This document shows, piece by piece, positions 10,571-49,064 of a DNA stretch of 64,000 nt. The position numbers were made by a program, and so were the translations under genes. The number at the start of each line of letters is the position of its first letter. Position 1 is the stretch's first letter. The notes beneath the pieces were generated by a model. The model ran no database searches and was not told the origin of the DNA. It saw only the letters and a list, made by a program, of their open reading frames with translations. The stretch covers positions 497,596-561,595 of the forward strand of contig JAXLQW010000001.1 in the NCBI GenBank assembly GCA_046331385.1. Direction: 5' to 3'. Origin of the DNA: Thermoanaerobaculia bacterium (lineage in GTDB: Bacteria > Acidobacteriota > Thermoanaerobaculia > Multivoradales > JAGPDF01).

Positions 10571-10646
<76 letters not shown>

Positions 10647-10678
10647 ACCCGAGCTCTCCCCGCCGCACGCCGCACGAC

Positions 10679-10756
10679 CGGCCCCATCGTCTAGCCCGGT
10701 CCAGGACATCGCCCTTTCAAGGCGCAAACACGGGTTCGAATCCCGTTGGGGCTACC
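10679..10756 (+). tRNA. tRNA-Glu (anticodon TTC)
   Basis: The tcgtctag D-arm and the anticodon loop ctttcaa flanked by tcgcc/ggcgc give anticodon TTC. T-arm acggg-ttcgaat-cccgt. Acceptor ggcccca/tggggct. CCA is encoded. Boundaries are ±2 nt. Confidence 0.8.
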
Positions 10757-11085
10757 AATCCTCGCTTCGCTCGCTCGACACCTCGGCCGGGATCCGGTCC
10801 TGCCTGGGCCTGAACGGCCCGGCAGGTGGCGAATCCCGTTGGGGCTACCAATCCTCGCTTCGCTCGCTCGACACCTCGGCCGGGATCCGGTCCTGCCCGG
10901 GCCTGAACGTCCCGGCAGGAGGCGAATCCCGTTGGGGCTACCAAACCTCGCTTCGCTCGCTCGACACCTCGGCCGGGATCCGGTCCTGCCTGGGCCTGAA
11001 CGGCCCGGCAGGCGGCGAATCCCGTTGGGGCTACCAAACCTCGCTGCGCTCGGGACCAACTCGGCGGGATAAGGCGTCGCTGGGA
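10757..11085 (+). repeat. Tandem array of ~93-bp units, each reiterating the last ~22 nt of tRNA-Glu (gcgaatcccgttggggctacca) plus a ~72-nt spacer with a 12-bp hairpin; three pseudo-copies follow the genuine tRNA 3' end
   Basis: gcgaatcccgttggggctacca recurs at about 10829, 10922 and 11015. The spacer is atcctcgcttcgctcgctcgacacctcggccgggatccggtcctgcctgggcctgaacggcccggcagg. The last unit has a divergent tail, ...ctcgctgcgctcgggaccaactcggcggg. Confidence 0.8.
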
Positions 11086-20107: not shown

Positions 20108-20647
20108 AGCGGGAGGCAGGGGGCGCAGGTCGAACACCCCTCCCGGTCCGAGCACCAGAATCCGCACTCGACCGCGGGGAAATTCGACGACGCCCGTGAA
20201 ACGCGGGCTGCCGAGCTCGGCCGTCGCCTCGGCGGGGGCGCCGGCCGGGGGCACCGGCCGGAACTCGACCTCGACGTCGTGCCGGCCGGGCGGGATCTCG
20301 AGCTGCTCTTCGACCGCCAGCGGACGGGTACGGCGGACGCCCTTGTGGCGGACCTCGCGCTCGAGCCGCGACGTGCCGTCGATCGTCACCCGCAGCCGGT
20401 AGTCGATCGCGGTTTCCTGGCACTGCCGCCTCTGGCGCATGTGCGCCGGCAGCTGGGCGAGCTCGCTCTCCGTGAGGTCGCGGCAGATCTCGATCTTGGC
20501 GTGCTCGGCGCGCAGCGCCAGGCGCAGCGCGGCCGCGGTCGCCGGCGCGCCGAGCGGCATGTGCGCCAGCGCGCCGACCGCCGCCACCAGCGCCGCCGCG
20601 AGTGCCAGGCCGGCGAGGGAACGCACGATGCGGCGGATTTCAGGCAT
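20048..20647 (-). CDS. Hypothetical protein with an N-terminal signal-anchor; last gene of the heme-copper oxidase operon
   Basis: ATG lies 2 nt after the stop of the upstream cytochrome b fusion gene. N-terminus MPEIRRIVRSLAGLALAAALVAAVGALA. No recognisable domain. Confidence 0.45.
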   Translation of the reverse strand: MPEIRRIVRSLAGLALAAALVAAVGALAHMPLGAPATAAALRLALRAEHAKIEICRDLTESELAQLPAHMRQRRQCQETAIDYRLRVTIDGTSRLEREVRHKGVRRTRPLAVEEQLEIPPGRHDVEVEFRPVPPAGAPAEATAELGSPRFTGVVEFPRGRVRILVLGPGGVFDLRPLPPASGPAAHQAAGEEDDQQSED

Positions 20648-22247
20648 GCGCCACCTCGACGCCAGCCTCGCTCTCGGCGGGGGTCTCGCACACCAGCTCC
20701 GGCTCCCAAGCTTCGACCGTGCCGCCGCCGAGCCGGTCGACCCGCGCTTCGAGATCGCCGAGCGCCGCGACGATGCGCGGCCACTCGCCGGGCGAGAAGC
20801 TCGCGACTTCGACGCGCAGGCGATCGACCCGCTCCGGCAGCTCGGCCTCGCGGCCGTCGAAGACGCGCGCCGCCAGCCACTTCGGGCCTTCGCGGAAATA
20901 GCAGTCGCGCGGCGAGCAGGTGAGCAGGAAAACTCCGCCGGCGCCGCGGCGCAGGAGCAGCTCGAGCACCGAGGTGTGCACCGATCCGCCGCAGCCGGTG
21001 GGCAGGATGGAGCGCTGCGGGCCGGCGAGCCGGGCGAGCGTCGCGGCGTGCCCGTTGGCGCAGCCGAGGATCACGATCTGGCGCGGTCCGGGGCGCTCGC
21101 GTTCGAGAAAAGCGCGCGCCGCCGCGAGCTGATCGCGGCCGGTGCGCTCGGCGGGGCCGACGCCCATCGGCGCGCAGGAGCCGGCGCAGATGCCGCAGCC
21201 GACGCAGCGCGTCGGATCGACGCGCGCCACCAGCGGCGAGTGCTGGCGCTCGGCGAGCGTGCGCGGCACCATGGCGATCGCCTCGTAGGGGCAGTCCTGA
21301 TAGCAGTTGGTGCAGCCCGTGCAGTGGTCCTCGTCGACGAAGGAGGGCGCGATCTCGCGCCGCGGCCGCCAGAGCCAGGGCAGCGCGACGAGCAGCGAGA
21401 AGAGCGCCAGCCAGAAGCCGAGGTGGGCGAGCGGCTCGACGCGCTGGGCGAGCGGCAGCCAGAAGGCGAAGAAGAGATCGGTCGCCAGGCGGTCCGGCAG
21501 CTGCGTCAGATCGGCGGCGGGTGGCAGGCGGACCGGCGCCACCGCAGCGTAGACCACCAAGAGCGCCAGGACGTAGCGGCGAACGGCGCGCGGCGGCAGG
21601 AGCGCGGGGCGGGCGAGGCGCGAGACGTGCAGCCAGAGGACAGCGGCGATGCCGAGCGGCAGGGCGACGTGCAGGAACAGGTTCATGAAGAAGAACGACG
21701 ACGGGATCGGCGTCTCGCCGCTGAAGTTGCGCGCGATGGGTTCGGAGAAGATGGGCAGCAGGTCGGCGAGCCGCGCCCCCTCGACCGCGATCTGCTGGCC
21801 CTGGCGGTCCCAGACCATCACCAGGCCGGTCCAGCCGGAGAGCAGCACCACCCCGAGCAGCACGATGCCGGAGATCCAGGCGACCGCCCGCGGACCCCAA
21901 GTTTGGCCGTGCGCCAGCTTGCGCAGCAGGTGCAGGATGACGGCGACGATCGCCAGGTCGGCGCTGTAGCGGTGCATCGAGCGCGCCCAGGCGCCGAGGA
22001 AGACCCGCTGCTGGATCTCCACCACCGAGCCGTGGGCATCGGCGATGCGGTAGAAGAGGAAGAGGTAGAGACCGGTCGCCAGGGTAACCAGGAAGAAGAG
22101 GATCGCCAGGTTGCCGCTTTGGTAGATCGGATTGAAGCGTGAGCCGTAGAGACGGTCGAAGAGCCGGTCGAGGAGCGCCAGCAGGCGGCCGAGGCTGCGG
22201 CCGATGGCCGGCGGACCCGCGGCGCCGGCGGCCGGCTTGGAGCTCAC
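20640..22247 (-). CDS. Fusion protein: cytochrome b N-terminal-like membrane domain + 4Fe-4S dicluster ferredoxin + MvhD/FlpD-like domain
   Basis: Membrane part (FNPIYQSGNLAILFFLVTLATGLYL, MHRYSADLAIVAVILHLLRKLAHG) resembles the cytochrome b/b6 N-terminal domain. Two Fe-S motifs follow: CTGCTNCYQDCP and CVGCGICAGSCAP. A C-terminal Cys-rich segment (GCANGHA...CGGS...CSPRDC) matches the FlpD/MvhD pattern. Proposed GTG start at 22245-22247 overlaps the SCO1 stop (GTGA); this start is uncertain. The ORF's longer N-terminal extension is Arg/Pro-rich junk. Confidence 0.6.
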   Translation of the reverse strand: MSSKPAAGAAGPPAIGRSLGRLLALLDRLFDRLYGSRFNPIYQSGNLAILFFLVTLATGLYLFLFYRIADAHGSVVEIQQRVFLGAWARSMHRYSADLAIVAVILHLLRKLAHGQTWGPRAVAWISGIVLLGVVLLSGWTGLVMVWDRQGQQIAVEGARLADLLPIFSEPIARNFSGETPIPSSFFFMNLFLHVALPLGIAAVLWLHVSRLARPALLPPRAVRRYVLALLVVYAAVAPVRLPPAADLTQLPDRLATDLFFAFWLPLAQRVEPLAHLGFWLALFSLLVALPWLWRPRREIAPSFVDEDHCTGCTNCYQDCPYEAIAMVPRTLAERQHSPLVARVDPTRCVGCGICAGSCAPMGVGPAERTGRDQLAAARAFLERERPGPRQIVILGCANGHAATLARLAGPQRSILPTGCGGSVHTSVLELLLRRGAGGVFLLTCSPRDCYFREGPKWLAARVFDGREAELPERVDRLRVEVASFSPGEWPRIVAALGDLEARVDRLGGGTVEAWEPELVCETPAESEAGVEVAHA

Positions 22248-23188
22248 CGCGCCGGCTCCGCCGAGCGCCGCAGAGCCTCGACGAGCCAGGCCGGTGAGGG
22301 ATTGAGGAAGCGGTAGGCGAGACGGCCCTCGGGATCGACCACGAAGGCGAGCCCCGGGTGGACGATGTCGCCGGTCGCCAGGTCCCGGCTGGCGCCGATT
22401 CCCCAGGCGTCGTGGGTCGCGGTCACGGCGGAGATCTCTCCCGAGAGGACGCGTGCGTCGGGATCGTCCGCGAGCTGCCACTGCGCGGCGATCGAGGACA
22501 GCGATCCTACCGTGTCGCGCCACGGGTCGAGCGTCACCACCACGATCGCCGGACGCAGCGCCGGCGGCGAGAGATCGCGTGCCCGGCGCAGAGTGGCGAC
22601 CAGCACCGGACAGACGGTCCGGCAGTGGGCGAAAGCGAAAGTGACCAGCGCCGGCCGTCCGCGCAGGGAGGCGAGGTCGAAGCTCGCACCTCCGGCCGCG
22701 GTGAGCCGGAGCGGCGGCGCGGGATCGCCGCCGCGCGGATAGAACTCGGGCAGGGGCTCGGGCGCCGCCTCGGCGCCGATCGCCCGCCCGGCGCGGGCCG
22801 CGGAGGCGACGCGGTCGCCGAGCCAGATGGCGCCGACGGCGAGCGCCAGAGCGAGCGTGCCGAGGAGCGTCGCGCCGGCGAGCCGGCCCGAGAGCCAGGC
22901 GAGGCCGGCGCGCAGCTCCCGTCCCCAGACGACGAGCAAGAAGCCGAGCATCGAGGCGGGGCCGAGGACGAGGAGCATCCAGCCGTAGTCGTCGGGCAGG
23001 CCGCTCGGCAGGGTGCCGAAGCAGATCGCCCGCGTCCGGGTCAGCCAGTCCGGTGGGAGAGAAAGCGGAGCGAACGCCAGGGCCCACCAGAGCCCGGTCA
23101 CCGCCAGCCAGCCGAAGAACGCGGCGAGCGGGAACGGGGCCGGGCGAGGCTCGGCGCCGGTGGGCGCCATGGCGTCCGCGTGCGACAC
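22244..23188 (-). CDS. SCO1/SenC family copper chaperone with an N-terminal membrane domain
   Basis: Thioredoxin-like domain with a CxxxC motif (FAFAHCRTVCP) and a downstream His (ATHDAWG). Two or three hydrophobic helices at the N-terminus. Confidence 0.7.
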   Translation of the reverse strand: MSHADAMAPTGAEPRPAPFPLAAFFGWLAVTGLWWALAFAPLSLPPDWLTRTRAICFGTLPSGLPDDYGWMLLVLGPASMLGFLLVVWGRELRAGLAWLSGRLAGATLLGTLALALAVGAIWLGDRVASAARAGRAIGAEAAPEPLPEFYPRGGDPAPPLRLTAAGGASFDLASLRGRPALVTFAFAHCRTVCPVLVATLRRARDLSPPALRPAIVVVTLDPWRDTVGSLSSIAAQWQLADDPDARVLSGEISAVTATHDAWGIGASRDLATGDIVHPGLAFVVDPEGRLAYRFLNPSPAWLVEALRRSAEPAR

Positions 23189-23192
23189 GGTG

Positions 23193-24965
23193 TCAGCCGA
23201 CCTTCCAGATCATCGACAGGATCTTCCAGTTGGTGAAGTAGTAGAGGATGAAGACCGCCAGGAAGACGAAGACCAGCACGATGGTGCCGGGCGCGCCGAC
23301 CTTGTGCGCCGCCTCGGAGGTGGCGAGGTCGTGCGACTGCGCGGGAAGGCGGAGAACGCCCTGCGGGATCCCCCGGGCGTTGGCCTCGAGGGCCGCCGGA
23401 TCGAACTTCTTGCCGAAGAAGATCGACACCACCGCAATGGCGATGAAGGACAGCACGGCGATGACCGCGATCACTCCGCCGATGCCGATGCCGGCCATGA
23501 AGAGATCGACCGCCGGCGGGAACTCGAGGTGGAAAGGCGCGCCCGGGAAAGTGATGTCGGCGTGCCGGCGCGGCACCCCGAAGGTGCCGGCGAAGGTCAT
23601 GCTCATCGACAGGATGACGATGCCGAGCGCGAACAGGTAGGGCTGCCAGCGGGCGAGACCCCAGAACGCGACGCGCTTCCGGAACACGAGCGGGATCACG
23701 TAGTAGGTGAGCGCCATGAAGGCGAGAGCCGTCCCGCCGACCACGGTGACGTGGAAGTGGCCGGGGACGCGCAGGGTGTTGTGGGCGATGATGTTGATCT
23801 GCTCGGTGCCCTGGGTCACGCCGGTGACCCCGCCCATGAAGCCGAAGATGACGATCGACAGGAAGGTGCCGGAGAAGCCAGGGTCCGACCACGGGGCCTT
23901 GCGCAGCCACTCGAAGCGCCCCTTGTTGAAGCCGCGCAGGCGCATGCCCATCTCCATGCCGGCGGGCACGGTGAAGCCGTGGATCATCGAGGCGAGCACC
24001 GCGAGGTACATGGCGTAACTGGTGTTCCAGACTTTCCACGCCGGGCCCATGCCGGGGTCGACCAGCAGGTGGTGCGCCGAGGCCATGGAGATGAAGAGGA
24101 CGTAGAGCACGAAGGCCCAGCGGCTGACTTTCTGGTTGACCACCACCGCGCCGATGGTGAGCGCTCCCATCAGATACCAGACCGAGACCATCGCCGCGAC
24201 GTTGATCTGTTGCGAGGAGTGGCCGAGGGCCCAGAACACCATGCGGTAGACCTCGGGGTCGACGTTCATCTTGTCGATCGACCAGAGGAAGGTCGGGATG
24301 TAGATCGCGGCGCCGTGCACCAGGGTGATCACCGCGATGATCGCCGCGGTCAGGGCGCCGAAGGTGACGAGCGACATCGAGCCCGAGTAGGACTTCTCGC
24401 GCTTGGCCACCACCAGGGCGGCGAAGAAGAGTAGGGTGGCGATGAGCGCCCCGACCGCGAAGAGGATGATTCCCAGGTAGTAGGCCGGGTGGGCGCGCAG
24501 CGGGATGTAGGAGGTGAAGAGCACGTCCGCCTTGCCGGCGAAGACCATCACGTCGACGAGCAGCGCTCCGGCGAGCATCAGGCTGAATCCCGCCCAGGCG
24601 AGCTTCGGTGCCGGCTGCCGGCAGCCGAGCAGCACCGGCCCGGCGAAGTAGAGGATCGCCATCTCGAAGAAGATGATGAAGAAGATCAGCATGTTGAGCC
24701 CGTGCGCGGTCAACATGCGGTAGTACCAGACCGGGTTGAGCAGGTGGACCGCCTGCCAGCGGGTGAGCGCCAGCAGCAGGGCGGCGATCACCCCGACCAG
24801 GAAGAAGACCACGCCGGCGACCGCGTTCCATTTCACCAGGCGCTCGGAATCGCGATTGACGGTCAGGCCGGTGACCGGACAGACGCGGGCGGCGAGGCGC
24901 CAGATGGCGCTCGGCTCGCGGGCGCCGACGGGCGCGCCTCCCGAGGTAACGTCAGCGACGCTCAT
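23193..24965 (-). CDS. Heme-copper oxidase superfamily subunit I (divergent; no Tyr follows the CuB His; possibly NOR-related)
   Basis: Twelve-plus TM helices. Conserved His pattern: FWALGHSSQQ, MASAHHLLV, HFHVTVV. The A/B-family GHPEVY cross-link Tyr is replaced by GHSSQQ. The start overlaps the subunit II gene by 14 nt. Confidence 0.75.
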   Translation of the reverse strand: MSVADVTSGGAPVGAREPSAIWRLAARVCPVTGLTVNRDSERLVKWNAVAGVVFFLVGVIAALLLALTRWQAVHLLNPVWYYRMLTAHGLNMLIFFIIFFEMAILYFAGPVLLGCRQPAPKLAWAGFSLMLAGALLVDVMVFAGKADVLFTSYIPLRAHPAYYLGIILFAVGALIATLLFFAALVVAKREKSYSGSMSLVTFGALTAAIIAVITLVHGAAIYIPTFLWSIDKMNVDPEVYRMVFWALGHSSQQINVAAMVSVWYLMGALTIGAVVVNQKVSRWAFVLYVLFISMASAHHLLVDPGMGPAWKVWNTSYAMYLAVLASMIHGFTVPAGMEMGMRLRGFNKGRFEWLRKAPWSDPGFSGTFLSIVIFGFMGGVTGVTQGTEQINIIAHNTLRVPGHFHVTVVGGTALAFMALTYYVIPLVFRKRVAFWGLARWQPYLFALGIVILSMSMTFAGTFGVPRRHADITFPGAPFHLEFPPAVDLFMAGIGIGGVIAVIAVLSFIAIAVVSIFFGKKFDPAALEANARGIPQGVLRLPAQSHDLATSEAAHKVGAPGTIVLVFVFLAVFILYYFTNWKILSMIWKVG

Positions 24966-25539
24966 GCTCGACCTCCTTGGCGAGCGCGGAGACCCGCGCC
25001 GCCGGCTCGACCACGATGCGGCCGAGCATGGTGTGGTGATTGATGCCGCAGAACTCGTTGCAGACGATGCGGTAGTCGCCGGGCTTGTTGGGCTGGATGG
25101 TGAGCCCGTAGTCGTAGCCCGGGACGATCTGGATATTGAGGTTCGCCGGATAGAGGCTGAAGCCGTGATTGACGTCGATCGACGAGAGGTGGATGGTGTA
25201 GCTCGCCCCTTCTTGCAGCTTCAGCGCCGGATACCAGCGCCACATCTGGGCCATCAGGTAGACGTCGCTGCCGGGCGGCGGTGCGACCAGCGGAATGCCG
25301 TTCTCCTCGCCGATCTTGTACTCCTCGACGAAGCGGAAGACGCGCGCCACGTAGTCCTCGGGCTTGACCCGCGAGCGGATGCCCGAAGGGTTCTGGCCGC
25401 CGCGCAGATGCCAGAAGGGCATCATCGCGAACAGCACCATGCACCAGCAGAAAGCGATCGCCACCCACAGGCGCTCCTGCTTGCCCGCGGGTCGCCACCA
25501 CACGCCCTGCGGAGTCACGATTCCGGAATGGAGCTCCAT
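24952..25539 (-). CDS. Heme-copper oxidase subunit II with a complete CuA centre
   Basis: Single N-terminal TM helix and a cupredoxin domain. CuA ligands H..CNEFCGINHHTM are present. ATG at 25537-25539 lies 9 nt from the IS end. Confidence 0.8.
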   Translation of the reverse strand: MELHSGIVTPQGVWWRPAGKQERLWVAIAFCWCMVLFAMMPFWHLRGGQNPSGIRSRVKPEDYVARVFRFVEEYKIGEENGIPLVAPPPGSDVYLMAQMWRWYPALKLQEGASYTIHLSSIDVNHGFSLYPANLNIQIVPGYDYGLTIQPNKPGDYRIVCNEFCGINHHTMLGRIVVEPAARVSALAKEVEHERR

Positions 25540-25548
25540 CGCATCTCC

Positions 25549-27153
25549 TTAGCCCGGATCCACGGATAAGGCGGGGATGTTGAAGTAGCGGAAGCGCCCC
25601 AAGCCTGATAAGACGGCGCTGTTCAAGGTCGTCGTCTTCAGGAGAGGAGCACTTCCGAGGTGAAGATCCCAAAGCGAGTCCGTGGCGTCAAGTTCCGATC
25701 GTCGGGCGCGGCGACGACCTCCTTCGCGGGCCTGCGTTTCGTGGTCGAGCTGGCGTCGAAGCTGCGAGTGATCGAGCGGCTCCGCGTCGTTTCGGTGAAG
25801 AAACGCCGTCGAGGAATTCCAGTCGAGGACTTCGTGATGAGCCTGGCGTCGAGCTTTCTGGTCGGCGGCGACAGCCTGAGCGATCTGTCTGTGCTGCGAG
25901 AAGAGACCGTGACGCGCGAGTTGTGCTTCGATCTCGAGGTGCCGGCGCCGACGACGGCGGGCGAGCGTCTGCGCAGCTTCTCGTTGGGTCACCTGCGACA
26001 GCTCGATGGAGCCCAGCGTGAGACCTGCCGCGAAATTCTCGAGCGGACGAGTGGGAGCGAAGCGCTGACGCTGGACGTGGACAGCTCGATCATCGAGGTC
26101 TACGGCGACCAGAAGCAGGGTGCGCGTTTCGGCTACAGCGGCGTGCGTGGGCTGCATCCGCTGCTGGCCTTCGCTCACGAGGAGCGGCTTCTGTTGGGGG
26201 CGCGGCTACGCGCGGGCAACCGAGCCTCGTCGGACGGCGTCGTCCCGTTTCTCGAAGACGTCCTCACGGCGATCCCGGCTCGCCGTCGGGTGCGCCTGCG
26301 GATGGACGCCGGTTTCTACGGCAAGTCGGTGGAAGGATTCGCGACCGAGCGTGCCCTGGGCTTCAGCATTTCGGCGAGGCTGACGAAGCGGCTGCGCGCC
26401 GAGATCGAAGCGCTTCCCGAAGGGGCGTGGCGCAGCTATCCGTGGGAAGAAGAGGCCGAGTACGCCGAGCTGCGTTACCGGCCCACGGGCTGGTCGAGCG
26501 ACTACCGCCTCCTCGTCAAGCGGACGCCCTGGTTCGACCAGGAGCAGCGCCTGCTCGACGAGCACTTCTTCACGCCGGTCATCACCAACCTGCCGGGCGC
26601 CGCGAGCAGCCTGATTCGCTATCACCTGGCACGCGGTGGGGCCGAGAACTACATCGAGGAGTTCAAGTCCGGCATCGGCGCCTCGCATCTGCCCTCACGC
26701 TGCTTTCACGCCAACTGGGCCTGGCTGTTGATCGCCGCTCTCGCTTACAACCTCGCGCAAGCCTTCAAGCTCCTGCTGCTCCCCGCCGCCGAGCAGGCGC
26801 AGCAGATCAAGAAGCTGCGCCTGCACTGGCTGTGCGTCGCCGCCCGCTTCATCCGCACCGGCAGACGCTTCGTCCTGGCGCTCGCTCGCGGACCGGACAC
26901 GGCCAACGCCTTCGAGCGCCTGCAACAACAGCTCACCACGCTCTGATTCCGCAACCAAGGGAAGCGGCATCCCGGCTGCGCGCCAGGAGTGTCTCCCGCG
27001 GACCCCTCCATCCTCCAACTCACGCTCGACCACCGCCTTCGACCGCGAACACCAGCCCTACCTGAGCCAGAAATCCGCCGCGCGGGTGGCCGCTGCAGCA
27101 ATCTGAGCCCGTCCGCTCCACTTCAGCCGCCTTACCCGTGGATCCGGGCTTAG
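25549..27153 (+). mobile_element. IS1380-family insertion sequence (~1.6 kb) with 24-27-bp imperfect terminal inverted repeats
   Basis: IRL ttagcccggatccacggataaggcgg at 25549-25574. IRR ccgccttacccgtggatccgggcttagg at 27127-27153, whose reverse complement matches IRL at 24 of 26 positions. One transposase ORF lies between them. No clean target-site duplication could be identified. Confidence 0.75.
25660..26946 (+). CDS. IS1380-family DDE transposase
   Basis: 428 aa. GTG start preceded by ggagaggag. Features characteristic of IS4/IS1380-type transposases: ...VDSSIIEVYGDQKQGARFGYSGVRGLHPL... and C-terminal YHLARGGAENYIEEFKSGIGASHLPSRCFHANWAWLLIAALAYNL. Confidence 0.7.
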   Translation: MKIPKRVRGVKFRSSGAATTSFAGLRFVVELASKLRVIERLRVVSVKKRRRGIPVEDFVMSLASSFLVGGDSLSDLSVLREETVTRELCFDLEVPAPTTAGERLRSFSLGHLRQLDGAQRETCREILERTSGSEALTLDVDSSIIEVYGDQKQGARFGYSGVRGLHPLLAFAHEERLLLGARLRAGNRASSDGVVPFLEDVLTAIPARRRVRLRMDAGFYGKSVEGFATERALGFSISARLTKRLRAEIEALPEGAWRSYPWEEEAEYAELRYRPTGWSSDYRLLVKRTPWFDQEQRLLDEHFFTPVITNLPGAASSLIRYHLARGGAENYIEEFKSGIGASHLPSRCFHANWAWLLIAALAYNLAQAFKLLLLPAAEQAQQIKKLRLHWLCVAARFIRTGRRFVLALARGPDTANAFERLQQQLTTL

Positions 27154-27305
27154 GGGAGCTTTCCCTGGGGTAGGGAGAGGATCTCGAAGAGGCCCCATCC
27201 CGTGTAAAAGAGGACCATCACGAAGAGGCCGGCGGCGAGCAGCAGGAACGGCCGCTCGAAGAGCCGCTGCCCGAGGGGTACGGGGTCTTTCACGGATTCG
27301 GCCAT
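27150..27305 (-). CDS. Small single-TM membrane protein (51 aa), possibly an oxidase subunit IIa-like accessory subunit; its stop codon lies inside the IS terminal repeat
   Basis: Not in the ORF track because it is under the length cutoff. ATG at 27303-27305 with an aaggaggg RBS. Sequence MAESVKDPVPLGQRLFERPFLLLAAGLFVMVLFYTGWGLFEILSLPQGKLP. The stop TAA is the 'tta' of the IRR outer end (cctaagcccgg). Confidence 0.45.
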   Translation of the reverse strand: MAESVKDPVPLGQRLFERPFLLLAAGLFVMVLFYTGWGLFEILSLPQGKLP

Positions 27306-27565
27306 GCGTTCCCTCCTTGCGGATGTCGGGACCCGGATCGGGTCGAGAGGACGTTAGGCGCAAAGCGTTCGCGTGCTCATGACGATGGTCATACGGACAG
27401 CGCAGGCGTGACGCGCGCCCGAGAAACGGGCCGGCGACGGGGCTCGGCGGCCTTCCGCCGGTCGGCGTCGACCTCACGATTCCATCTTGATTCTTAGCTT
27501 TCGTCGTGCTCTAGTAATAACAAACAGGGCACGCATTACACTAAATCTTCAAGGGAGAAACATAA

Positions 27566-29002
27566 ATGGCGACGGAGCTCAGAGACTTTCTGGAGATCCC
27601 CTACGACCAGCTCGAGGCGATGAACCTCGCGGCGAAGGAGGAACGGTCGGCGCGCAGGGATCCGGGAAAGGTCCAAGAAGCGCGCATCAAGTACCTGACC
27701 GACGAGAAGCGCATCAAGGCGGTGACCGTCTGCTTCACCGACCTCGAGGGGCGCTTCCACATGCTCGACTACGACAAGAAGTTCCTCCTCAAGTCGACCG
27801 ACAACCTGACCTTCGACGGCTCCTCGATCCGCGGCTTCTCGCAGCAGGCCGAGTCGGACCTGCGCCTGGCGATCGACTGGCCGGCCTTCTACTGGCTGCC
27901 GGCCGACATCTTCGGCCCCGGCAAGGTCCTGGTTTTCGGCGAAGTGCGCGAGCGCGACGGCTCGCCCTATCGCGCCGACATGCGGGCGCGGCTCAAGGCC
28001 TATGCCGACAAGCTCTGGGCCAAAGACCAGACGGTCGCCTACGCGGCCAACGAGATCGAGGGTTTCCTCTTCCGCGGCCGCGACGCCGAGCGGCGCTACC
28101 ACGAGGCGGAGAAGTTCGAGTTCATCTCGACCGGCGGCTACTACCACTCGCTGCCCGGCGACGCGCTGCGCCTGTTCATCGACACCGCGGCCGAGGTGCA
28201 GCGCGCCATGGGATTCGCCAACGAGAAGGACCACCCCGAGGTGGCGCCGTCGCAGTTCGAGATGAACTACGGCTACACCGAGGCGACGATCGCCGCCGAT
28301 CAGGTGCAGCTCTACAAGCTCCTGTCGCGCCAGGTGGCCGCGCGCCTCGACATGACCGCCTGCTTCCTGCCCAAGCCGGTCACCGGGGTCAACGGCAACG
28401 GCATGCACACCAACTTGTCGCTCGCCAAGCGGGGCAAGAACCTCTTCTACGACAAGAAGGGCCAGGACGGTCTGTCGGCGGCCGGCTGGGACTTCATCCA
28501 TCGCATCCTCGCCAGCGCCAACGACATCTGCCTGATCCTGAACTCGAGCGTCAACTCCTATCGTCGCCTCGACCCGCACTTCGAGGCGCCGAACCAGATC
28601 AAGGCCTCGGCGATCGATCGCGGTTCGATGGTGCGCATCCCGCTAGGCAACGAAAAGTCGGCGCGGGTCGAGGTGCGCTCGATCGCCCCGGACGCCAATC
28701 CGTACCTCGCCATCTACTCGCTGCTGCGCACCGGCCTCGACGGACCGCTCGAGAACGAGGAGAGTGACGGCAAGCGCTCGCGCACCCGGTTCCTCCCCGA
28801 CAACATCTACGACGGCATCCGCCTGTTCAAGGCGAGCAAGTTCGCCCAGGAGATCCTGGGCGAGGAGGTGCACGCCAAGCTCGCCGACCTGAAGCTCGCC
28901 TCGGCGGAACGCTGTCCCAAGGCCCTCGGCGCGCTGGTGAAGGCGGCCGAGATCCAGTTCCACCACGAAGTCACCAACCAGTACCTCTGGTCGCAGTTCT
29001 GA
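27566..29002 (+). CDS. glnA: Glutamine synthetase
   Basis: 478 aa. Catalytic-domain motifs are present: KPVTGVNGNGMHTNLS, NSYRRL, RIP. RBS aagggag 6 nt upstream. Confidence 0.9.
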   Translation: MATELRDFLEIPYDQLEAMNLAAKEERSARRDPGKVQEARIKYLTDEKRIKAVTVCFTDLEGRFHMLDYDKKFLLKSTDNLTFDGSSIRGFSQQAESDLRLAIDWPAFYWLPADIFGPGKVLVFGEVRERDGSPYRADMRARLKAYADKLWAKDQTVAYAANEIEGFLFRGRDAERRYHEAEKFEFISTGGYYHSLPGDALRLFIDTAAEVQRAMGFANEKDHPEVAPSQFEMNYGYTEATIAADQVQLYKLLSRQVAARLDMTACFLPKPVTGVNGNGMHTNLSLAKRGKNLFYDKKGQDGLSAAGWDFIHRILASANDICLILNSSVNSYRRLDPHFEAPNQIKASAIDRGSMVRIPLGNEKSARVEVRSIAPDANPYLAIYSLLRTGLDGPLENEESDGKRSRTRFLPDNIYDGIRLFKASKFAQEILGEEVHAKLADLKLASAERCPKALGALVKAAEIQFHHEVTNQYLWSQF

Positions 29003-44208: not shown

Positions 44209-45102
44209 ATGCGGGGAGGCGAGTTGAACGAATCGACCGGTCGGGAGGCGAGGTGGGTGACGGCGAGGCGGCACCGCCGAATGCTGGGTGTTTCGGCCCT
44301 GGCGGCGCTGTGGGCGACCGGCGCCGTAGCGCAGGCCGACTCGGCGCCGGTGGTGCGCTTCCGCGCCGAGCAGCGCGCCGTGGCGACGGTTCCGCCGCTG
44401 CCGCCGACCTCGACGTTCCCGGTGCAACTGGTCCTCGACGACGACAGCTTCGAGGGCACACTCGGCGTGGCGAGCGGCCAGAACGCCAAGCAGTTCCTCT
44501 TCTTCGAGCGCTTCGGGCCGGTGCCCGGCTTCACCCTGCAGGAAGTCTGGATTCTCTTCCCGGGCGACGCCCCGGTCGGCGGCGCGATCGAGATCGTGGT
44601 CTTCGAGGACAGCGACGGCGATCCGTCGAACGGCGCAACGTTGCGCGCGGCTTTCGCGACCACGGTGTCGGCCAACGACGGCAACACCTTTTCGGTCTAT
44701 CCGTTGCCGGCGCCGCTCGCCTTCGATTCCGGTCGCGAGGTGCTGATCGGCGCCGTGCCGCGCTTCATCCAGAGCGGCGTGACGCCGTTCCTCTTCCCGG
44801 CGGCGATCGACGGCACCGCGAGCCAGGGGCGCTCCTGGCTCGCGGTCTGGCTCGGCGACCCGCCCGATCCGCCGCTGCTGCCGGCGGACCAGATCACCGC
44901 GCCGCTCGACGACTTCCAACCCGGCAACTGGATGATTCGCGGCTTCGGCACCGGCGTGAGCCCGCTCGAAGTTCCGGCGCTCGGACCGGCCGGGCTCGCC
45001 GCGCTCGCGGCGCTGCTCGCGGCCGGCGGACTCGCTCTGCTACGACGTCGGGACGGCGCGCGGATCGCGATGGGGAAGCACGACGGAGGAGGTCTCGAGT
45101 GA
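44209..45102 (+). CDS. Secreted hypothetical protein with an IPTL-CTERM-like C-terminus (VPALGPAGLAALAALLAAGGLALLRRRDGA...)
   Basis: The start is ambiguous: ATG 44170, 44209 or 44281 are all in frame, and 44209 has a gaggga RBS. Signal-like segment MLGVSALAALWATGAVAQA. A C-terminal TM helix plus RRR is followed by an unusual 15-aa tail. The stop overlaps the downstream GTG (GTGA). Confidence 0.5.
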   Translation: MRGGELNESTGREARWVTARRHRRMLGVSALAALWATGAVAQADSAPVVRFRAEQRAVATVPPLPPTSTFPVQLVLDDDSFEGTLGVASGQNAKQFLFFERFGPVPGFTLQEVWILFPGDAPVGGAIEIVVFEDSDGDPSNGATLRAAFATTVSANDGNTFSVYPLPAPLAFDSGREVLIGAVPRFIQSGVTPFLFPAAIDGTASQGRSWLAVWLGDPPDPPLLPADQITAPLDDFQPGNWMIRGFGTGVSPLEVPALGPAGLAALAALLAAGGLALLRRRDGARIAMGKHDGGGLE

Positions 45103-48100
45103 TCAGCCCGCGTTTGCCGAAGCGGTTCCGGAGGTGGTTCTCGCGCGCGGCGGTCGGGCTCCTCGCCACGCTCGTCTGGGGCCAGGCGCCGGCTCGGGCC
45201 CAGGTGATCGTCGACAGCTTCACCACCGTCCAGTCGACTCTCAGCGCACCGCCCGACGCGAGCTCGACCGCCACCGGCGGCGCCGACATCGTCGGCACCA
45301 AGCGCGGCATCGTGCAGCACGAAGTCGCGGGCGCCGGGCCGTCGACGGTCGCGGTCGCCGCCGGCCTGTTGACCCTGACGGTACCCAACACGACCCCCGA
45401 TTCGCGCGCCGAAGCGCGGCTCTCCTGGGACGGCGACAACAGCCCGGCGGTGCTCAATCCGACCGGCCTCGGAGCCGTCAACCTGACCGCCGGCAACTCC
45501 GGCGGATTTCGCATCCGCGTCGCTTCGGCGGGCGCCGGAGCCGAGCTCGAATTCGCCGTCTACTCGACCGCCGCCAACTTCTCGCGCGCCGCCCGCCTGC
45601 TGCCGGCGATCGCCTCGTCGACCGACGTCTTCCTGTCGTTTTCGGAGTTCCGCACGGCCGGCGGCACGGGGGCCAACTTCGCCAGCGTCGGCGCCATCGA
45701 GCTCACCGTGCGCGGCAAGGAGATCGCCGTCGTCCTCGACGAGATCGTCACCAGCGCGCCGATCCTGGCGGCGACCAAGGTGGACGCGCAGACGGTCGAC
45801 GTCGACGGCGACACGCGGGTCGATCCCGGCGACCGGGTGCGCTACACGGTAACCATCACCAACACCGGAAACGACGCGCTGGCGGTCGACCTGACGGACG
45901 CGGTCGACGCCAACACCACGCTGGTCGCGGGCTCGGTGCACTCGACGCCGGTGGCGCGCAACGACCAGTACGGCTGGTTTGGGAACGTGACCTTCGCCGC
46001 CGACGGGAGCGCCGGCCGGCCCGGCCTGCTCGCCAACGACGAGGACGGCGACGGCGACACGCTCACCGTGACCTCGGTCTCGCCGACCAGCTCCCAGGGC
46101 GGCACGGTCACCCTCGACGATGCCGCGACCGGCAAGTTCACCTACGCTCCGCCGGCGGGCTTCGCCGGCGTCGATTCGTTCGGCTACACGCTGCAGGACG
46201 ACGACGGCAACAGCAAGTCGGCGACCGCCTACGTCCAGCTCAAGGGAATCGTCTGGTTCGTCGACAATGCCTGCTCGGTCGGCTGCGGTCAGGGGACCTT
46301 CTCCTCGCCGTTCACCACCCTGCCGCAGGCCGAGACCGCCTCGGGCGCCAACGACATCGTTTACGTCCGTACGGGCTCGGGGGCCTACGACACCGGTGCG
46401 GCGAACGGCTTTTCCATGGACGCCGATGAGCAGCTGCTGGGCGAAGGCGTCGCCCTGGTGCTCGACGGCACGACGATCGTGCCGGTCGGCGCGCCGCCGC
46501 TGCTCACCAACGAGGTGGCGACGGTGGGTCGGGGCGTCACCCTGGCCGCCAGCGGCACCGACACCCTCCGCGGCCTGACGATCGGCAACACCGCCGGCGC
46601 GAAGATCTTCGGCAACACCTTCGGCACCCTGGCGACCGACACCCTCACCCTGAACGGCACGGGCCAGGCGCTCGACCTGACCAACGGGGTGCTGGCGACG
46701 ACGCTCGTCGGTCTCGCGTCGTCGACCAGCGCCACGACCGGGATCTCGCTCGCGACAGTCTCGGGTTCACTGACGGTGACCGGCTCGACGGGAATCACCA
46801 ATCCCGCCGGTACCGGTATCAGCATCGCGACTTCGACCGCCGCGCTGAGCTTCGCGTCGACGAGCATCGACAAGAGCGCGAGCGCCGGAACCGGGTTGTC
46901 GATCACCGGCAGCAGCGGCACGACCGGCTTCTCGAACCTGGCGGTCACGACCAGCGCCGGTACCGGCGTTCTCGTCTCCGGCAGCCCGCTCTCCGTGGGC
47001 GGCTCGGCGAGCACGATCGCCGCCACCGGCGGCCCGGCCCTCGACCTCACCACCGTGAACCTCGGCGCCGGCGCGACCTTCGCCACTGCGAGCTCGACCG
47101 GCAGCGCCGGCAAGGGCATGAACCTCGACACCCTGACCGGCGCCCTGACCATGAACGGCGGCTCGATCAGCACGCCAACCGGCACCGCGTTCGACCTCAA
47201 CGCCGGCTCCGCCAACGTGACCTACGCCGGCTCGGTCAGCAACACGGCGAACGCGCTCCTGGTCGAGATCACCGGCCGCAGCGGCGGCACGGTGGCGCTC
47301 TCGGGCGCGCTCTCGAGCACCGGCTCGGGCAACGGCATCAGCGTGGCCAACAACACCGGCGGCACGATCAACTTCAGCAACGCCTCGAAGACGCTGACCA
47401 CCGGCGCGGATCCGGCGGTGACGCTCGCCAGCAACACCGGCGCGACGATCAACTTCAGCGGCGGCGGGCTGGCGATCACCACCACCTCGGGCGCCGGCTT
47501 CACCGCCACCGGCGGAGCGACGGCGATCACGGTCCAGGGCACCGCCAACACGATCAGCTCGACGACCGGCACGGCGCTCAACGTCGCGAATTCGACGATC
47601 GGCGCGAGCGGCTTGACCTTCCAGAGCGTCTCGGCGAACGGCGCTTCGCGCGGCATCGTGCTGAACACGACCGGTGCCTCCGGCGGGCTGACCGTGACGG
47701 GCAACGGCGGCACGTGCACCAGCGCGGATACTTCCGGCTGTTCCGGCGGGACGATTCAGGCGTCGACGGGCGCGGATGACTCGAGCCTCACGCCGGCCGG
47801 GACCGGGATCGTGCTCAACAGCACGGCGAGCGTCTCGCTCACGCGTATGTTCATCCACGACCACAGCAACTACGGAATTCGCGGCACCTCGGTGGCCGGG
47901 TTCACGCTCGATCAGAGCGTACTCGGTGGCACCAACGGCGGCCCGCTCCCGGCCAGCGCCGGTTCGCCTTTCCACGACGGCTCCATCAAGTTCGACAACC
48001 TGACCGGCTCGGCGACCATCTCGAATTCGGCGATCAGCGGCGGTTTCTCGAACAACGTGCGCGTCGACAACACCACGGGCACCCTCAACCGCATCACCTT

Positions 48101-49064
48101 TTCGGGGGATACGATCGGCGCCAATAGCACCAGCGACGGTGAAGACGGTATCCTGTTGGAGACAGAGGGCAGCGGCGGCGTGATCTTGGCAACGGTACAG
48201 AACTGCGCGTTCACATCGGCGAGAGGCGACCTGTTCAATTTCGTCAGCAACTCAACCAGCGCCACCGCAGATGATCTCGTGTTCACCGGCAACACACTCA
48301 CCAACAATCATCCGGCGATCGCCACGGGCGGCGGCGGCACGACGATCAGCAGCAACGGAGGCAAGACGTTCACCTTCAGCATGTCGGGCAACTCCTTCCG
48401 AGATGCGGTGGGCATCGGCGTGCTGGTGGTGAAATCGACCGGCTCCAGCACGCTCTCCGGAACGTTCGCCAACAATTCCATCGGCGTCGCCGCGGTCGCC
48501 AATTCCGGATCTCTCGAGGGCTCCGCGATCAAAGTGCAAAACGCCGGACTGGGCGCGGTGACGATGGCGATCACGAACAATCAGATCCGGCAGTACAACA
48601 ACTTCGGAATCGAGCTCCTGACCGGGGGCGGCGCCTCACCCCTGAGCGGCGCCCTCAACGCCACGATTACCGGGAACTCGATCACCAATCCGGGCACCAA
48701 CCCCGCCACCGCATCGATCGCGAAGAACGGGCTCCACCTGAACGGCGGCACCGTCCCAGGGGACACCTATCAGATTTGTCTCGACGCCGGCGGCGCGGGC
48801 GCGCTCCAGAACTCGCTGTCGACATCGGGGGCGCCGAGTGACGTCCCGGCGGGCGGCGAGGACATTCGGCTGCGGCAACGCCAAGCGACCACGGTTCAGC
48901 TGCGTGGCTACGGCGGGGCGAACAACGACAACACGGCGGTGCAGAACTATCTGATCGCGCGCAACTCCGGCGACGGCGCGCCGTCGGCGATCGCCTCGAA
49001 CACCGTTCCCACCGGGGGCGGATACGTGAATACCCCAGGAGGAGCCGCATGTCCCCTGCCGTAG
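45099..49064 (+). CDS. Giant secreted parallel beta-helix repeat protein with an N-terminal DUF11-like domain and a VCBS/cadherin-like domain
   Basis: GTG start at 45099 with a strong ggaggagg RBS. Signal peptide (M)ISPRLPKRFRRWFSRAAVGLLATLVWGQAPARAQ. VCBS-like segment NDEDGDGDTLTVTSVSPTSSQGGTVTLDDAATGKFTYAPPAGFAGVDSFGYTLQDDDGNS. Dozens of Gly/Thr/Ser-rich beta-helix rungs (NNQIRQYNNFGIELL, NSAISGGFSNNVRVDN). The ORF's N-terminal extension before 45099 is an artefact. Confidence 0.75.
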   Translation: MISPRLPKRFRRWFSRAAVGLLATLVWGQAPARAQVIVDSFTTVQSTLSAPPDASSTATGGADIVGTKRGIVQHEVAGAGPSTVAVAAGLLTLTVPNTTPDSRAEARLSWDGDNSPAVLNPTGLGAVNLTAGNSGGFRIRVASAGAGAELEFAVYSTAANFSRAARLLPAIASSTDVFLSFSEFRTAGGTGANFASVGAIELTVRGKEIAVVLDEIVTSAPILAATKVDAQTVDVDGDTRVDPGDRVRYTVTITNTGNDALAVDLTDAVDANTTLVAGSVHSTPVARNDQYGWFGNVTFAADGSAGRPGLLANDEDGDGDTLTVTSVSPTSSQGGTVTLDDAATGKFTYAPPAGFAGVDSFGYTLQDDDGNSKSATAYVQLKGIVWFVDNACSVGCGQGTFSSPFTTLPQAETASGANDIVYVRTGSGAYDTGAANGFSMDADEQLLGEGVALVLDGTTIVPVGAPPLLTNEVATVGRGVTLAASGTDTLRGLTIGNTAGAKIFGNTFGTLATDTLTLNGTGQALDLTNGVLATTLVGLASSTSATTGISLATVSGSLTVTGSTGITNPAGTGISIATSTAALSFASTSIDKSASAGTGLSITGSSGTTGFSNLAVTTSAGTGVLVSGSPLSVGGSASTIAATGGPALDLTTVNLGAGATFATASSTGSAGKGMNLDTLTGALTMNGGSISTPTGTAFDLNAGSANVTYAGSVSNTANALLVEITGRSGGTVALSGALSSTGSGNGISVANNTGGTINFSNASKTLTTGADPAVTLASNTGATINFSGGGLAITTTSGAGFTATGGATAITVQGTANTISSTTGTALNVANSTIGASGLTFQSVSANGASRGIVLNTTGASGGLTVTGNGGTCTSADTSGCSGGTIQASTGADDSSLTPAGTGIVLNSTASVSLTRMFIHDHSNYGIRGTSVAGFTLDQSVLGGTNGGPLPASAGSPFHDGSIKFDNLTGSATISNSAISGGFSNNVRVDNTTGTLNRITFSGDTIGANSTSDGEDGILLETEGSGGVILATVQNCAFTSARGDLFNFVSNSTSATADDLVFTGNTLTNNHPAIATGGGGTTISSNGGKTFTFSMSGNSFRDAVGIGVLVVKSTGSSTLSGTFANNSIGVAAVANSGSLEGSAIKVQNAGLGAVTMAITNNQIRQYNNFGIELLTGGGASPLSGALNATITGNSITNPGTNPATASIAKNGLHLNGGTVPGDTYQICLDAGGAGALQNSLSTSGAPSDVPAGGEDIRLRQRQATTVQLRGYGGANNDNTAVQNYLIARNSGDGAPSAIASNTVPTGGGYVNTPGGAACPLP

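Follow-up and report, generated by a model that had tools for sequence, protein, structure and literature searches.

The window, a stretch of 64,000 nucleotides from a Thermoanaerobaculia bacterium, carries a haem-copper oxidase operon on its minus strand. An insertion sequence (IS) that encodes its transposase on the plus strand lies between the first gene of the operon and the gene for subunit II. The features at the locus are as follows.

20640..22247, minus strand: cytochrome b / 4Fe-4S / FlpD fusion, ~535 aa (535-539 aa in relatives), with a GTG start that overlaps the sco stop
22244..23188, minus strand: SCO1/SenC copper chaperone (sco), 314 aa, whose position is kept in relatives
23193..24965, minus strand: B-family oxidase subunit I (coxI), 590 aa, matching PF00115, with the ba3 structures 1EHK and 1XME (chain A) as best PDB matches
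24952..25539, minus strand: cytochrome c oxidase subunit II (coxII), 195 aa, one transmembrane helix, CuA motif CNEFCGINHHTM, with Thermus thermophilus ba3 subunit II as best PDB matches
25548..25552, no strand: left copy of the target-site duplication, CTTAG (CTAAG on the operon strand), which gives the AAG of the subunit II Shine-Dalgarno sequence AAGGAG
25553..27148, plus strand: complete IS1380-family insertion sequence, 1596 bp, with ends set by its inverted repeats, by four empty sites in related contigs (L009-L012) and by unitig L008
25553..25574, plus strand: left inverted repeat (IRL), CCCGGATCCACGGATAAGGCGG, 22 nt, starting CC(C)
25660..26946, plus strand: transposase gene (tnpA), 428 aa, GTG start, matching NCBIfam NF033539 (IS1380) and Pfam PF13701
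27127..27148, minus strand: right inverted repeat (IRR), CCCGGATCCACGGGTAAGGCGG, 22 nt, with one mismatch to IRL
27149..27153, no strand: right copy of the target-site duplication, CTTAG, which holds the TAA stop of the small open reading frame
27150..27305, minus strand: 51-aa protein with a single transmembrane segment, putative B-family oxidase subunit IIa and first gene of the operon, known from 170 homologues, synteny and its one hydrophobic segment (NCBI MFN7940386.1)
27379..27392, no strand: conserved palindrome ATGAC-N4-GTCAT, ~86 nt ahead of the small open reading frame, which may serve the native promoter as a Crp/Fnr-type operator

Members of the IS1380 family, as defined in ISfinder, carry a single ORF, measure roughly 1.55-2.0 kb and end in inverted repeats that begin with CC. 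They generate direct target repeats of 4-5 bp (PMC12116815). The window element has a single ORF of 428 aa, a length of 1596 bp, repeats starting with CC and a 5-bp direct repeat. Its transposase scores 305.7 bits against NF033539 (cut-off 180), in an alignment to profile positions 3-417 of 419, and 195.5 bits against PF13701 (cut-off 34.7; 1.3e-57); the models DDE_Tnp_1 and DDE_Tnp_1_4 are matched over their full length. The family assignment made by the first-pass annotation, and its placement of the element between the 51-aa ORF and the subunit II gene with the transposase on the opposite strand, are thus confirmed by the family models and the ORF coordinates.

The inverted repeats match at 21 of 22 positions and both start with CCCGG. 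Across the 64 kb there are just two occurrences of the 22-nt end motif, inverted relative to each other, against none in 100 shuffles; the repeats are far beyond chance. They had been drawn at 25549-25574 and 27127-27153. The repeats themselves are real, but those outer ends take in the target-site duplication, and the element really runs from 25553 to 27148. Caution is warranted here generally, as target-site duplications with a palindromic consensus can pass for extensions of inverted repeats. Window positions 25553-27150 are reproduced without a difference by L008, an independent Logan unitig that begins at the inferred left end. The element does lie upstream of subunit II, at a distance of 13 nt from its ATG; the 9 nt given earlier is the native spacer between the TAA and the ATG. 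A longer IS end or an extended target was considered when the left flank of another copy (L013, GCATCTCTTAG) was seen to resemble that of the window (GCATCTCCTTAG), but this was rejected: the empty sites contain that sequence, and 103 flanks have no preference beyond position -5.

Uninterrupted versions of the locus were located through a small protein with 96% identity (P0121). Four contigs from close relatives, with 92-96% nucleotide identity, read CTCCCCTAAGGAGATGCGATGGAG, which is what the window would read with the IS and one CTTAG removed. At the junction they read CCCTAAGGAGATGCGATG, identical to the reconstructed junction of the window, each with a single CTAAG and a spacer of 9 nt; the reconstructed empty site is CTCCCCTAAGGAGATGCGATGG. 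The native junction of stop codon and Shine-Dalgarno sequence thus has the form CCC-TAA-GGAGATGCG-ATG. In L002, a more distant relative, this point reads CCGTAAGGAGCGCCAGCCATG, and the junction is uninterrupted by a transposase in all 80 other genomes examined. The empty-site pattern CCCCTAAGGAGATGCGATGGAG gave no matches in the JGI metagenome_contigs collection.

Judged against these sites, the TAA of the small ORF and the AAGGAG of subunit II are evidently native sequence copied by duplication and not IS DNA. This overturns the earlier proposals that the end of the IS supplies the stop codon and that the Shine-Dalgarno sequence spans IS DNA: the TAA (27150-27152) falls within the copied target and is found in relatives whose sites are uninterrupted, and the Shine-Dalgarno sequence consists of target duplication plus flank. 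Nor has the native C-terminus been replaced, as had been suspected. All 24 aligned homologues end in LP, within a shared ending LPxxxLP (SLPQGKLP in the closest), and the relatives' sites carry the reconstructed junction.

The oxidase itself belongs, by its sequence matches, to the ba3 type (B-family) of haem-copper oxidases. Subunit I matches T. thermophilus ba3 chain A at ~1e-42 and then 7deg_A at 6e-41, whereas A-family enzymes match at 1e-6 or worse. In subunit II, the CuA motif C-N-E-F-C-G-I-N-H-H-T-M aligns to that of ba3 subunit II, and a single hydrophobic segment spans residues 22-45. The PDB and Pfam matches of both subunits uphold the earlier view that the IS sits inside a haem-copper oxidase operon. 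The coxII, coxI and sco products match those of relatives in length (195, 590 and 314 aa), and these genes and the cytochrome b gene are intact. A Pfam search of 20 further ORFs found no other oxidase in the window. Two 1-nt deletions in the coxI of contig L001 might be taken for decay after insertion, but both fall in homopolymer runs (GGG; CCCCC/GGG) and are more likely read or assembly errors.

The small protein is presumably the oxidase's subunit IIa. The Pfam family for this subunit is CoxIIa; a Pfam search with the small protein and 24 family members returned no match. Neither did a profile search of the PDB at E <= 10, which includes the solved ba3 IIa chains, and an exact look-up of the ORF gave no record. 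Genomic criteria for subunit IIa have been described by Prunetti et al. 2011 (PMC3128077): a gene directly upstream of that for a one-helix subunit II, encoding 34-71 aa with one transmembrane helix, a P-X1-3-G motif and a conserved Trp. The window protein has 51 aa and one hydrophobic segment; P10, G12 and W37 do not vary among 24 homologues; and the gene lies directly upstream of coxII in 80 of 80 GTDB loci. The residue after the Gly is Q, rather than T or A. The earlier suggestion of a IIa-like protein thus holds on these genomic criteria, and the label "putative subunit IIa" can be given to MFN7940386.1, as well as to 193 loci confirmed by tblastn among GTDB species representatives, which are labelled Thermoanaerobaculia, Gemmatimonadota, Methylomirabilota, Myxococcota and others. 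At one locus (L039) the frame of the small ORF stays open into coxII; this apparent IIa-II fusion is likely a sequence error, given a mid-translation garbled by compensating frameshifts.

The IS is present in multiple copies. Copy number was taken from NCBI transposase accessions: the transposase is identical to MFN7940385.1 and to at least three further accessions from the same metagenome-assembled genome (MAG), making at least four identical copies. The IS-only unitig, identical to the window copy, implies that the element probably has several flanks in its sample. An exact search of GTDB genome_contigs with the 33-nt left end of the IS gave no matches. From the identical accessions, the unitig and the empty sites, we infer that the element has been active recently.

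Related copies are flanked by 5-bp duplications of CTAAG, TTTAG and CTAAG; duplications of this length are found in L023, L024 and L026-29, and in L118, L136 and L144. A logo of 103 unique flanks gives the palindromic target YTWAR, and this preference of the lineage accounts for the position of the IS exactly on the junction of stop codon and Shine-Dalgarno sequence. In the window, which is 70% GC, CTWAG occurs 8 times and is rarer than expected from shuffles (24 +/- 5.5), and none of the 8 occurrences is in a region with coding-like composition.

A broader proposal can be built on this motif, and we regard it as distinctly doubtful. In genomes of 70% GC, a palindromic YTWAR target, with CTAAG/CTTAG favoured, could be nearly confined to junctions of stop codon and Shine-Dalgarno sequence and to other non-coding spots. 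The element would then split operons systematically without damage to cistrons, since copying 5 bp of target restores the stop as well as the ribosome-binding site, and its insertions might be tolerated, or reversed, via read-through or excision. The 51-aa protein would represent a large unannotated family of subunit IIa that crosses phyla. If true, such insertions would modulate expression in a way that the host tolerates or can reverse, in this case for a ba3 oxidase of microaerobic type.

The account that we favour for the locus itself is more limited and, taken as a whole, very probable. The multi-copy, recently active element, with its 22-nt repeats, transposed into a CTAAG pentamer at the IIa/II junction of a ba3-type operon, where staggered cleavage and repair duplicated the pentamer. 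One copy retains the TAA of the small gene and the other retains the AAGGAG of subunit II; therefore, both reading frames and their translation signals are untouched. What has changed is transcription. The coxII, coxI, sco and cytochrome b genes now follow the small gene at a distance of 1.6 kb, behind an opposite-strand transposase, and are severed from the native promoter region that precedes the small gene. The coordinates of the IS bear out the earlier statement that 1.6 kb separates the structural genes from their native upstream sequence. The ATGAC/GTCAT half-sites of the candidate operator recur, with varying spacers, in 10 related loci.

The most likely outcome is thus a polar loss, or at least a reduction, of coxII-coxI expression, as predicted from the gene arrangement. 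The downstream genes are still intact, presumably because the insertion is young. We infer both the polarity and the recency of the insertion.

It is also conceivable, if rather unlikely, that the insertion is near-neutral, such that transcription from the native promoter passes through the IS antisense to tnpA and the preserved Shine-Dalgarno sequence allows subunit II, and hence the oxidase, to be made. Because no minus-strand intrinsic terminator is predicted within 24900-27700, read-through could still deliver a coxII-coxI mRNA, whose Shine-Dalgarno sequence and ATG are fully kept by the duplication. The intact state of the downstream genes is consistent with this possibility, but it is equally expected after a very recent insertion. 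However, antisense RNA that goes largely untranslated over 1.6 kb is the kind of transcript on which Rho-dependent polarity typically acts. A scan of C/G ratio for Rho-utilisation sites in the antisense IS transcript gave one weak window, too little to weigh either way. In addition, the tight spacing or overlap of the two genes in relatives has been lost. A general feature of IS1380 elements that agrees with read-through is their reported over-representation between co-oriented genes (PMC9208149).

We consider it very improbable that an outward promoter within the IRL-proximal 107 bp of the IS now drives coxII-coxI. Such promoters are documented for the IS1380 members ISEcp1 and ISPme1 (PMC9330008), and there is a weak candidate, TTGACG-17-GATCTT, on the minus strand near 25692-25664. 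However, the -10 element of this candidate matches at 3 of 6 positions, and a sigma-70 scan found no outward IS promoter at its threshold, which is weak evidence given that the Acidobacteriota promoter consensus is poorly known. Moreover, the promoter activity and mobilisation described for ISEcp1 and ISPme1 reside at the 3' end, and this model is inapplicable here because it is the 5' (IRL) end that borders the oxidase genes, which are divergent from tnpA.

That a repeat was merely misplaced in the MAG is scarcely credible: the IS is a multi-copy repeat of the sort that breaks short-read assemblies, and its right junction (IRR/small ORF) is seen in the MAG alone, but a perfect 5-bp duplication matching the family target motif flanks it, removal of the IS and one duplication restores the exact junction of the four related contigs, and the left junction recurs in the independent Logan assembly of SRR26348416 (L001). 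The insertion is, on these sequences, real.

Annotation should flag the ba3-type operon as IS-interrupted, with possibly impaired expression and an undamaged small protein. The practical value lies in annotation and in reading the physiology of this MAG; current understanding of IS biology and of oxidases is unchanged.

The operon has the same order as cbaD-cbaB-cbaA (IIa, II, I) of T. thermophilus and Aquifex aeolicus, with a small one-helix protein, a one-helix CuA subunit II and subunit I. Its subunits I and II match ba3 structures best, and the small protein has the IIa features listed by Prunetti et al. In sequence, however, no similarity between it and the solved IIa chains can be detected. 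The window operon also differs in continuing into SCO1 and the cytochrome b/Fe-S/FlpD fusion, and in having its IIa and II genes parted by an IS. As in the classical polar insertions of IS1, IS2 and IS5 in gal and lac, the IS lies between cistrons, with distal genes cut from their promoter and coding sequences intact. Unlike in those cases, the duplicated target regenerates the stop on its upstream side and the ribosome-binding site on its downstream side, and polarity would here be a prediction.

The element shares with ISEcp1/ISEc9, ISPme1 and IS1380 a single DDE transposase, a length of ~1.6 kb, repeats that start with CC and 5-bp duplications, and it lies between co-oriented genes, as reported for the family (PMC9208149). 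Unlike these named members, it is an unnamed Thermoanaerobaculia IS, and it bears no sign of capture of adjacent DNA. A limited literature check found no description of the YTWAR preference for the IS1380 family. The element is a further member of a known IS family, and the insertion is an ordinary and cleanly resolved one.

An IS1380-family insertion sequence (IS) of 1596 bp, at 25553-27148, interrupts the minus-strand oxidase operon. The features concerned are the following.

20640-23188, minus strand: SCO1/SenC, then a cytochrome b/4Fe-4S/FlpD fusion (about 535 aa), the downstream continuation of the operon
23193-24965, minus strand: COX1 protein, 590 aa (subunit I, coxI)
24952-25539, minus strand: cupredoxin/CuA protein, 195 aa (subunit II, coxII)
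25660-26946, plus strand: IS transposase ORF, 428 aa (tnpA), between the 51-aa ORF and the subunit II gene
27150-27305, minus strand: 51-aa ORF, one of the genes bordering the IS (the small gene)
27379-27392: perfect palindrome ATGAC-N4-GTCAT, about 86 nt upstream of the small gene

The 428-aa ORF matches the NCBIfam model NF033539, "IS1380 family transposase," with 305.7 bits (cut-off 180) and Pfam PF13701 at 1.3e-57. The end motif CCCGGATCCACGGRTAAGGCGG has exactly two copies in the 64-kb window, at 25553-25574 (plus) and 27127-27148 (minus), and none in 100 shuffles. The family match and the inverted end motif therefore establish the IS as real, as the first-pass annotation had proposed.

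The pentamer CTTAG lies in the same orientation directly outside both 22-nt inverted repeats (25548-25552 and 27149-27153). Because CTTAG is almost palindromic, a repeat finder runs the inverted repeat on through it (31 nt, 90%), and the first-pass annotation did likewise. The inverted repeats stand, but the outer pentamer is excluded from the IS. Three independent sequence comparisons identify it as duplicated target DNA rather than IS DNA: the empty sites described below; a Logan unitig (L008, from SRR26348421; 1598 bp) that is identical to 25553-27150 and begins exactly at the inferred left IS end; and the target-site duplications (TSDs) of related IS copies, which include the non-palindromic direct repeats TTTAG/TTTAG and CTTAT/CTTAT.

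Excising 25553-27148 together with one pentamer leaves AAGCTCCCCTAAGGAGATGCGATGGAGCTCC on the operon strand. An identical junction occurs in L009-L012, four contigs of close relatives (JGI 3300045389, 3300045289 and 3300045383 and Logan SRR23702480). Over as much as 8.2 kb, these contigs share 92-96% identity with the window; their neighboring genes (glnA, DinB) match, as do the gene lengths (51, 195, 590, and 314 aa). A more distant relative without the IS (L002) reads CCGTAAGGAGCGCCAGCCATGGAATTCCATTCC. The TAA of the small ORF (27150-27152) falls in the right TSD copy, and the AAG of the subunit II AAGGAG falls in the left copy. Judged from these junctions, both signals are native. Thus, the IS end does not supply the stop codon, and the Shine-Dalgarno sequence of subunit II contains no IS DNA, contrary to the earlier proposals. 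The distance from the IS end to the ATG of subunit II is 13 nt; the 9 nt previously reported is the native TAA-to-ATG spacer. The suggestion that the C-terminus of the small protein was replaced also fails, given that the uninterrupted junction is recovered from relatives and that, among 170 homologs, LP forms the C-terminus of every one of the 24 that were aligned. The closest homologs have an identical C-terminus, ...SLPQGKLP.

The position of the IS reflects its choice of target. IS copies with transposases at least 90% identical have 5-bp TSDs of CTAAG, TTTAG, and CTAAG. Searching JGI metagenomes with the inverted-repeat core yielded 108 stretches with 103 unique outside flanks. Positions -5 to -1 of these flanks are C or T (82 of 103), T (82), T or A (79), A (78), and G or A (86), with no base preference beyond -5. 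The target is therefore YTWAR, a preference that accounts for placement on the TAA-GGAG junction, where a 5-bp duplication automatically leaves the stop codon and the ribosome-binding site intact. CTWAG is strongly depleted in the window (70% GC), with eight occurrences, two of them this TSD, versus 24 +/- 5.5 in dinucleotide shuffles. The other six (564, 10577, 11221, 27493, 35552, and 55807) are all outside coding-like sequence: one is within tRNA-Lys, and five fall where the composition is not coding-like, and at least two of these (35552 and 55807) are short gaps between co-oriented genes. ARAGORN and Rfam both support tRNA-Lys (10572-10647) and tRNA-Glu (10680-10757). A 97-nt tRNA-Thr called by ARAGORN at 47135-47231 (minus), within a 1603-aa ORF (44253-49064), is a probable false positive, because it scores below the gathering score of the Rfam tRNA model.

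Related copies show other settings. At one locus (L023, 2392-3990), the same-strand flanking ORFs (389 and 324 aa) resemble halves of one split gene; thus, this IS lineage can also insert within coding sequence. A related IS (87% nucleotide identity, transposase P0140) is found at a single fixed position in at least a dozen samples (L013-L022; for example, L013 1611-3200), 7 nt upstream of a divergent 520-aa gene. Its left inverted repeat is normal and its right one is not recognizable, and its sequence is probably that of an old, decayed copy. Upstream of tnpA in the window, an inverted repeat (25589-25608/25638-25657; 75% paired) places its right arm over the Shine-Dalgarno region; the counterpart in L013 (1648-1667/1698-1717) is 90% paired. 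Such a structure could protect tnpA translation against read-in transcripts.

The exact transposase sequence has at least four NCBI accessions in one Thermoanaerobaculia MAG (MFN7940385.1, 0782.1, 1450.1, 1602.1), of which 385 has subunit II (384) and the small protein (386) as its neighbors. L008 has no flank, and L001, an independent Logan contig that carries this insertion too, stops 28 nt into the IS, a pattern that multi-copy repeats should produce in de Bruijn assemblies. L001 differs from the window solely by two 1-nt deletions in coxI (L001 positions 1076 and 2205; window 24504 and 23374). Both are within homopolymer runs, so errors are more likely than pseudogenization. Every cistron and its translation signals are intact. 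Because the genes are intact and the IS copies identical, the insertion is probably recent.

The half-sites of the upstream palindrome are kept, with varying spacers, at 10 related loci (L002, L009-11, L031, L033, L035, L038, L042, and L049), and a Crp/Fnr-family regulator gene is directly upstream at two others (L006 and L007). The palindrome is thus likely a Crp/Fnr-type operator, and the most likely place for the native regulated promoter is upstream of the small gene. The catalytic genes are now split from this region and from the small gene by the 1596-bp IS and 5 bp of TSD, and tnpA occupies the opposite strand. Transcription from the native promoter would have to run antisense through 1.6 kb of IS, giving RNA that is mostly untranslated, a situation that favors polarity. 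Expression of coxII, coxI, sco, and the cytochrome b gene is therefore most likely reduced or lost. Read-through across the IS is possible, as no minus-strand intrinsic terminator is predicted. An outward promoter within the IS is the least supported explanation: a promoter scan found none, the best hand-picked candidate matches the -10 element at 3/6 positions, and the oxidase genes adjoin the left end of the IS, divergent from tnpA.

Subunits I and II best match the Thermus thermophilus ba3 oxidase (about 1e-42 and 1e-16 to 1e-17), far above A-family enzymes, and subunit II has a CuA motif and one hydrophobic segment. The small protein, with a single hydrophobic segment, has no match in Pfam or PDB. 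Under a published genomic definition of subunit IIa (Prunetti et al. 2011, PMC3128077), the gene immediately precedes that of a subunit II with one helix, and its product is 34-71 aa long, has a single helix, and carries a conserved Trp and a P-X1-3-G motif. The small protein falls within this definition, with P10, G12, and W37 invariant among 24 aligned homologs. Of 193 tblastn-confirmed loci in GTDB species representatives, 80 were fetched (L030-L109). In all 80, a subunit II homolog comes next on the same strand, with a gap of at most 34 nt in 74 and an intervening transposase in none. Some relatives have gene calls that overlap by 4 nt (ATGA or GTGA junction). In one MAG (L039, 2971-3759), a IIa-like ORF continues into subunit II in the same frame, with no stop between them; this is probably a sequence error rather than a natural fusion, because compensating frameshifts garble the middle of the subunit II translation. 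Record labels of the genomes include Thermoanaerobaculia, Gemmatimonadota, Methylomirabilota/Rokubacteria, Eisenbacteria, Myxococcota, Binatia, and others. The small protein belongs to a large, unannotated IIa-like family whose records carry the labels of many phyla. Downstream, the arrangement of SCO1 and the cytochrome b/4Fe-4S/FlpD fusion is conserved in relatives (L004, L006, and L009); it is an unusual electron-input module beside a ba3-type oxidase.

Two modest extensions appear to be new: the YTWAR target preference of this IS lineage, as now defined, and recognition of the IIa-like family. The IS is a standard IS1380-family member by every criterion tested, and NCBI already annotates its transposase accordingly. 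Likewise, B-family oxidase operons with a IIa-type small subunit were surveyed in 2011 (PMC3128077), and the operon in the window is a standard case.
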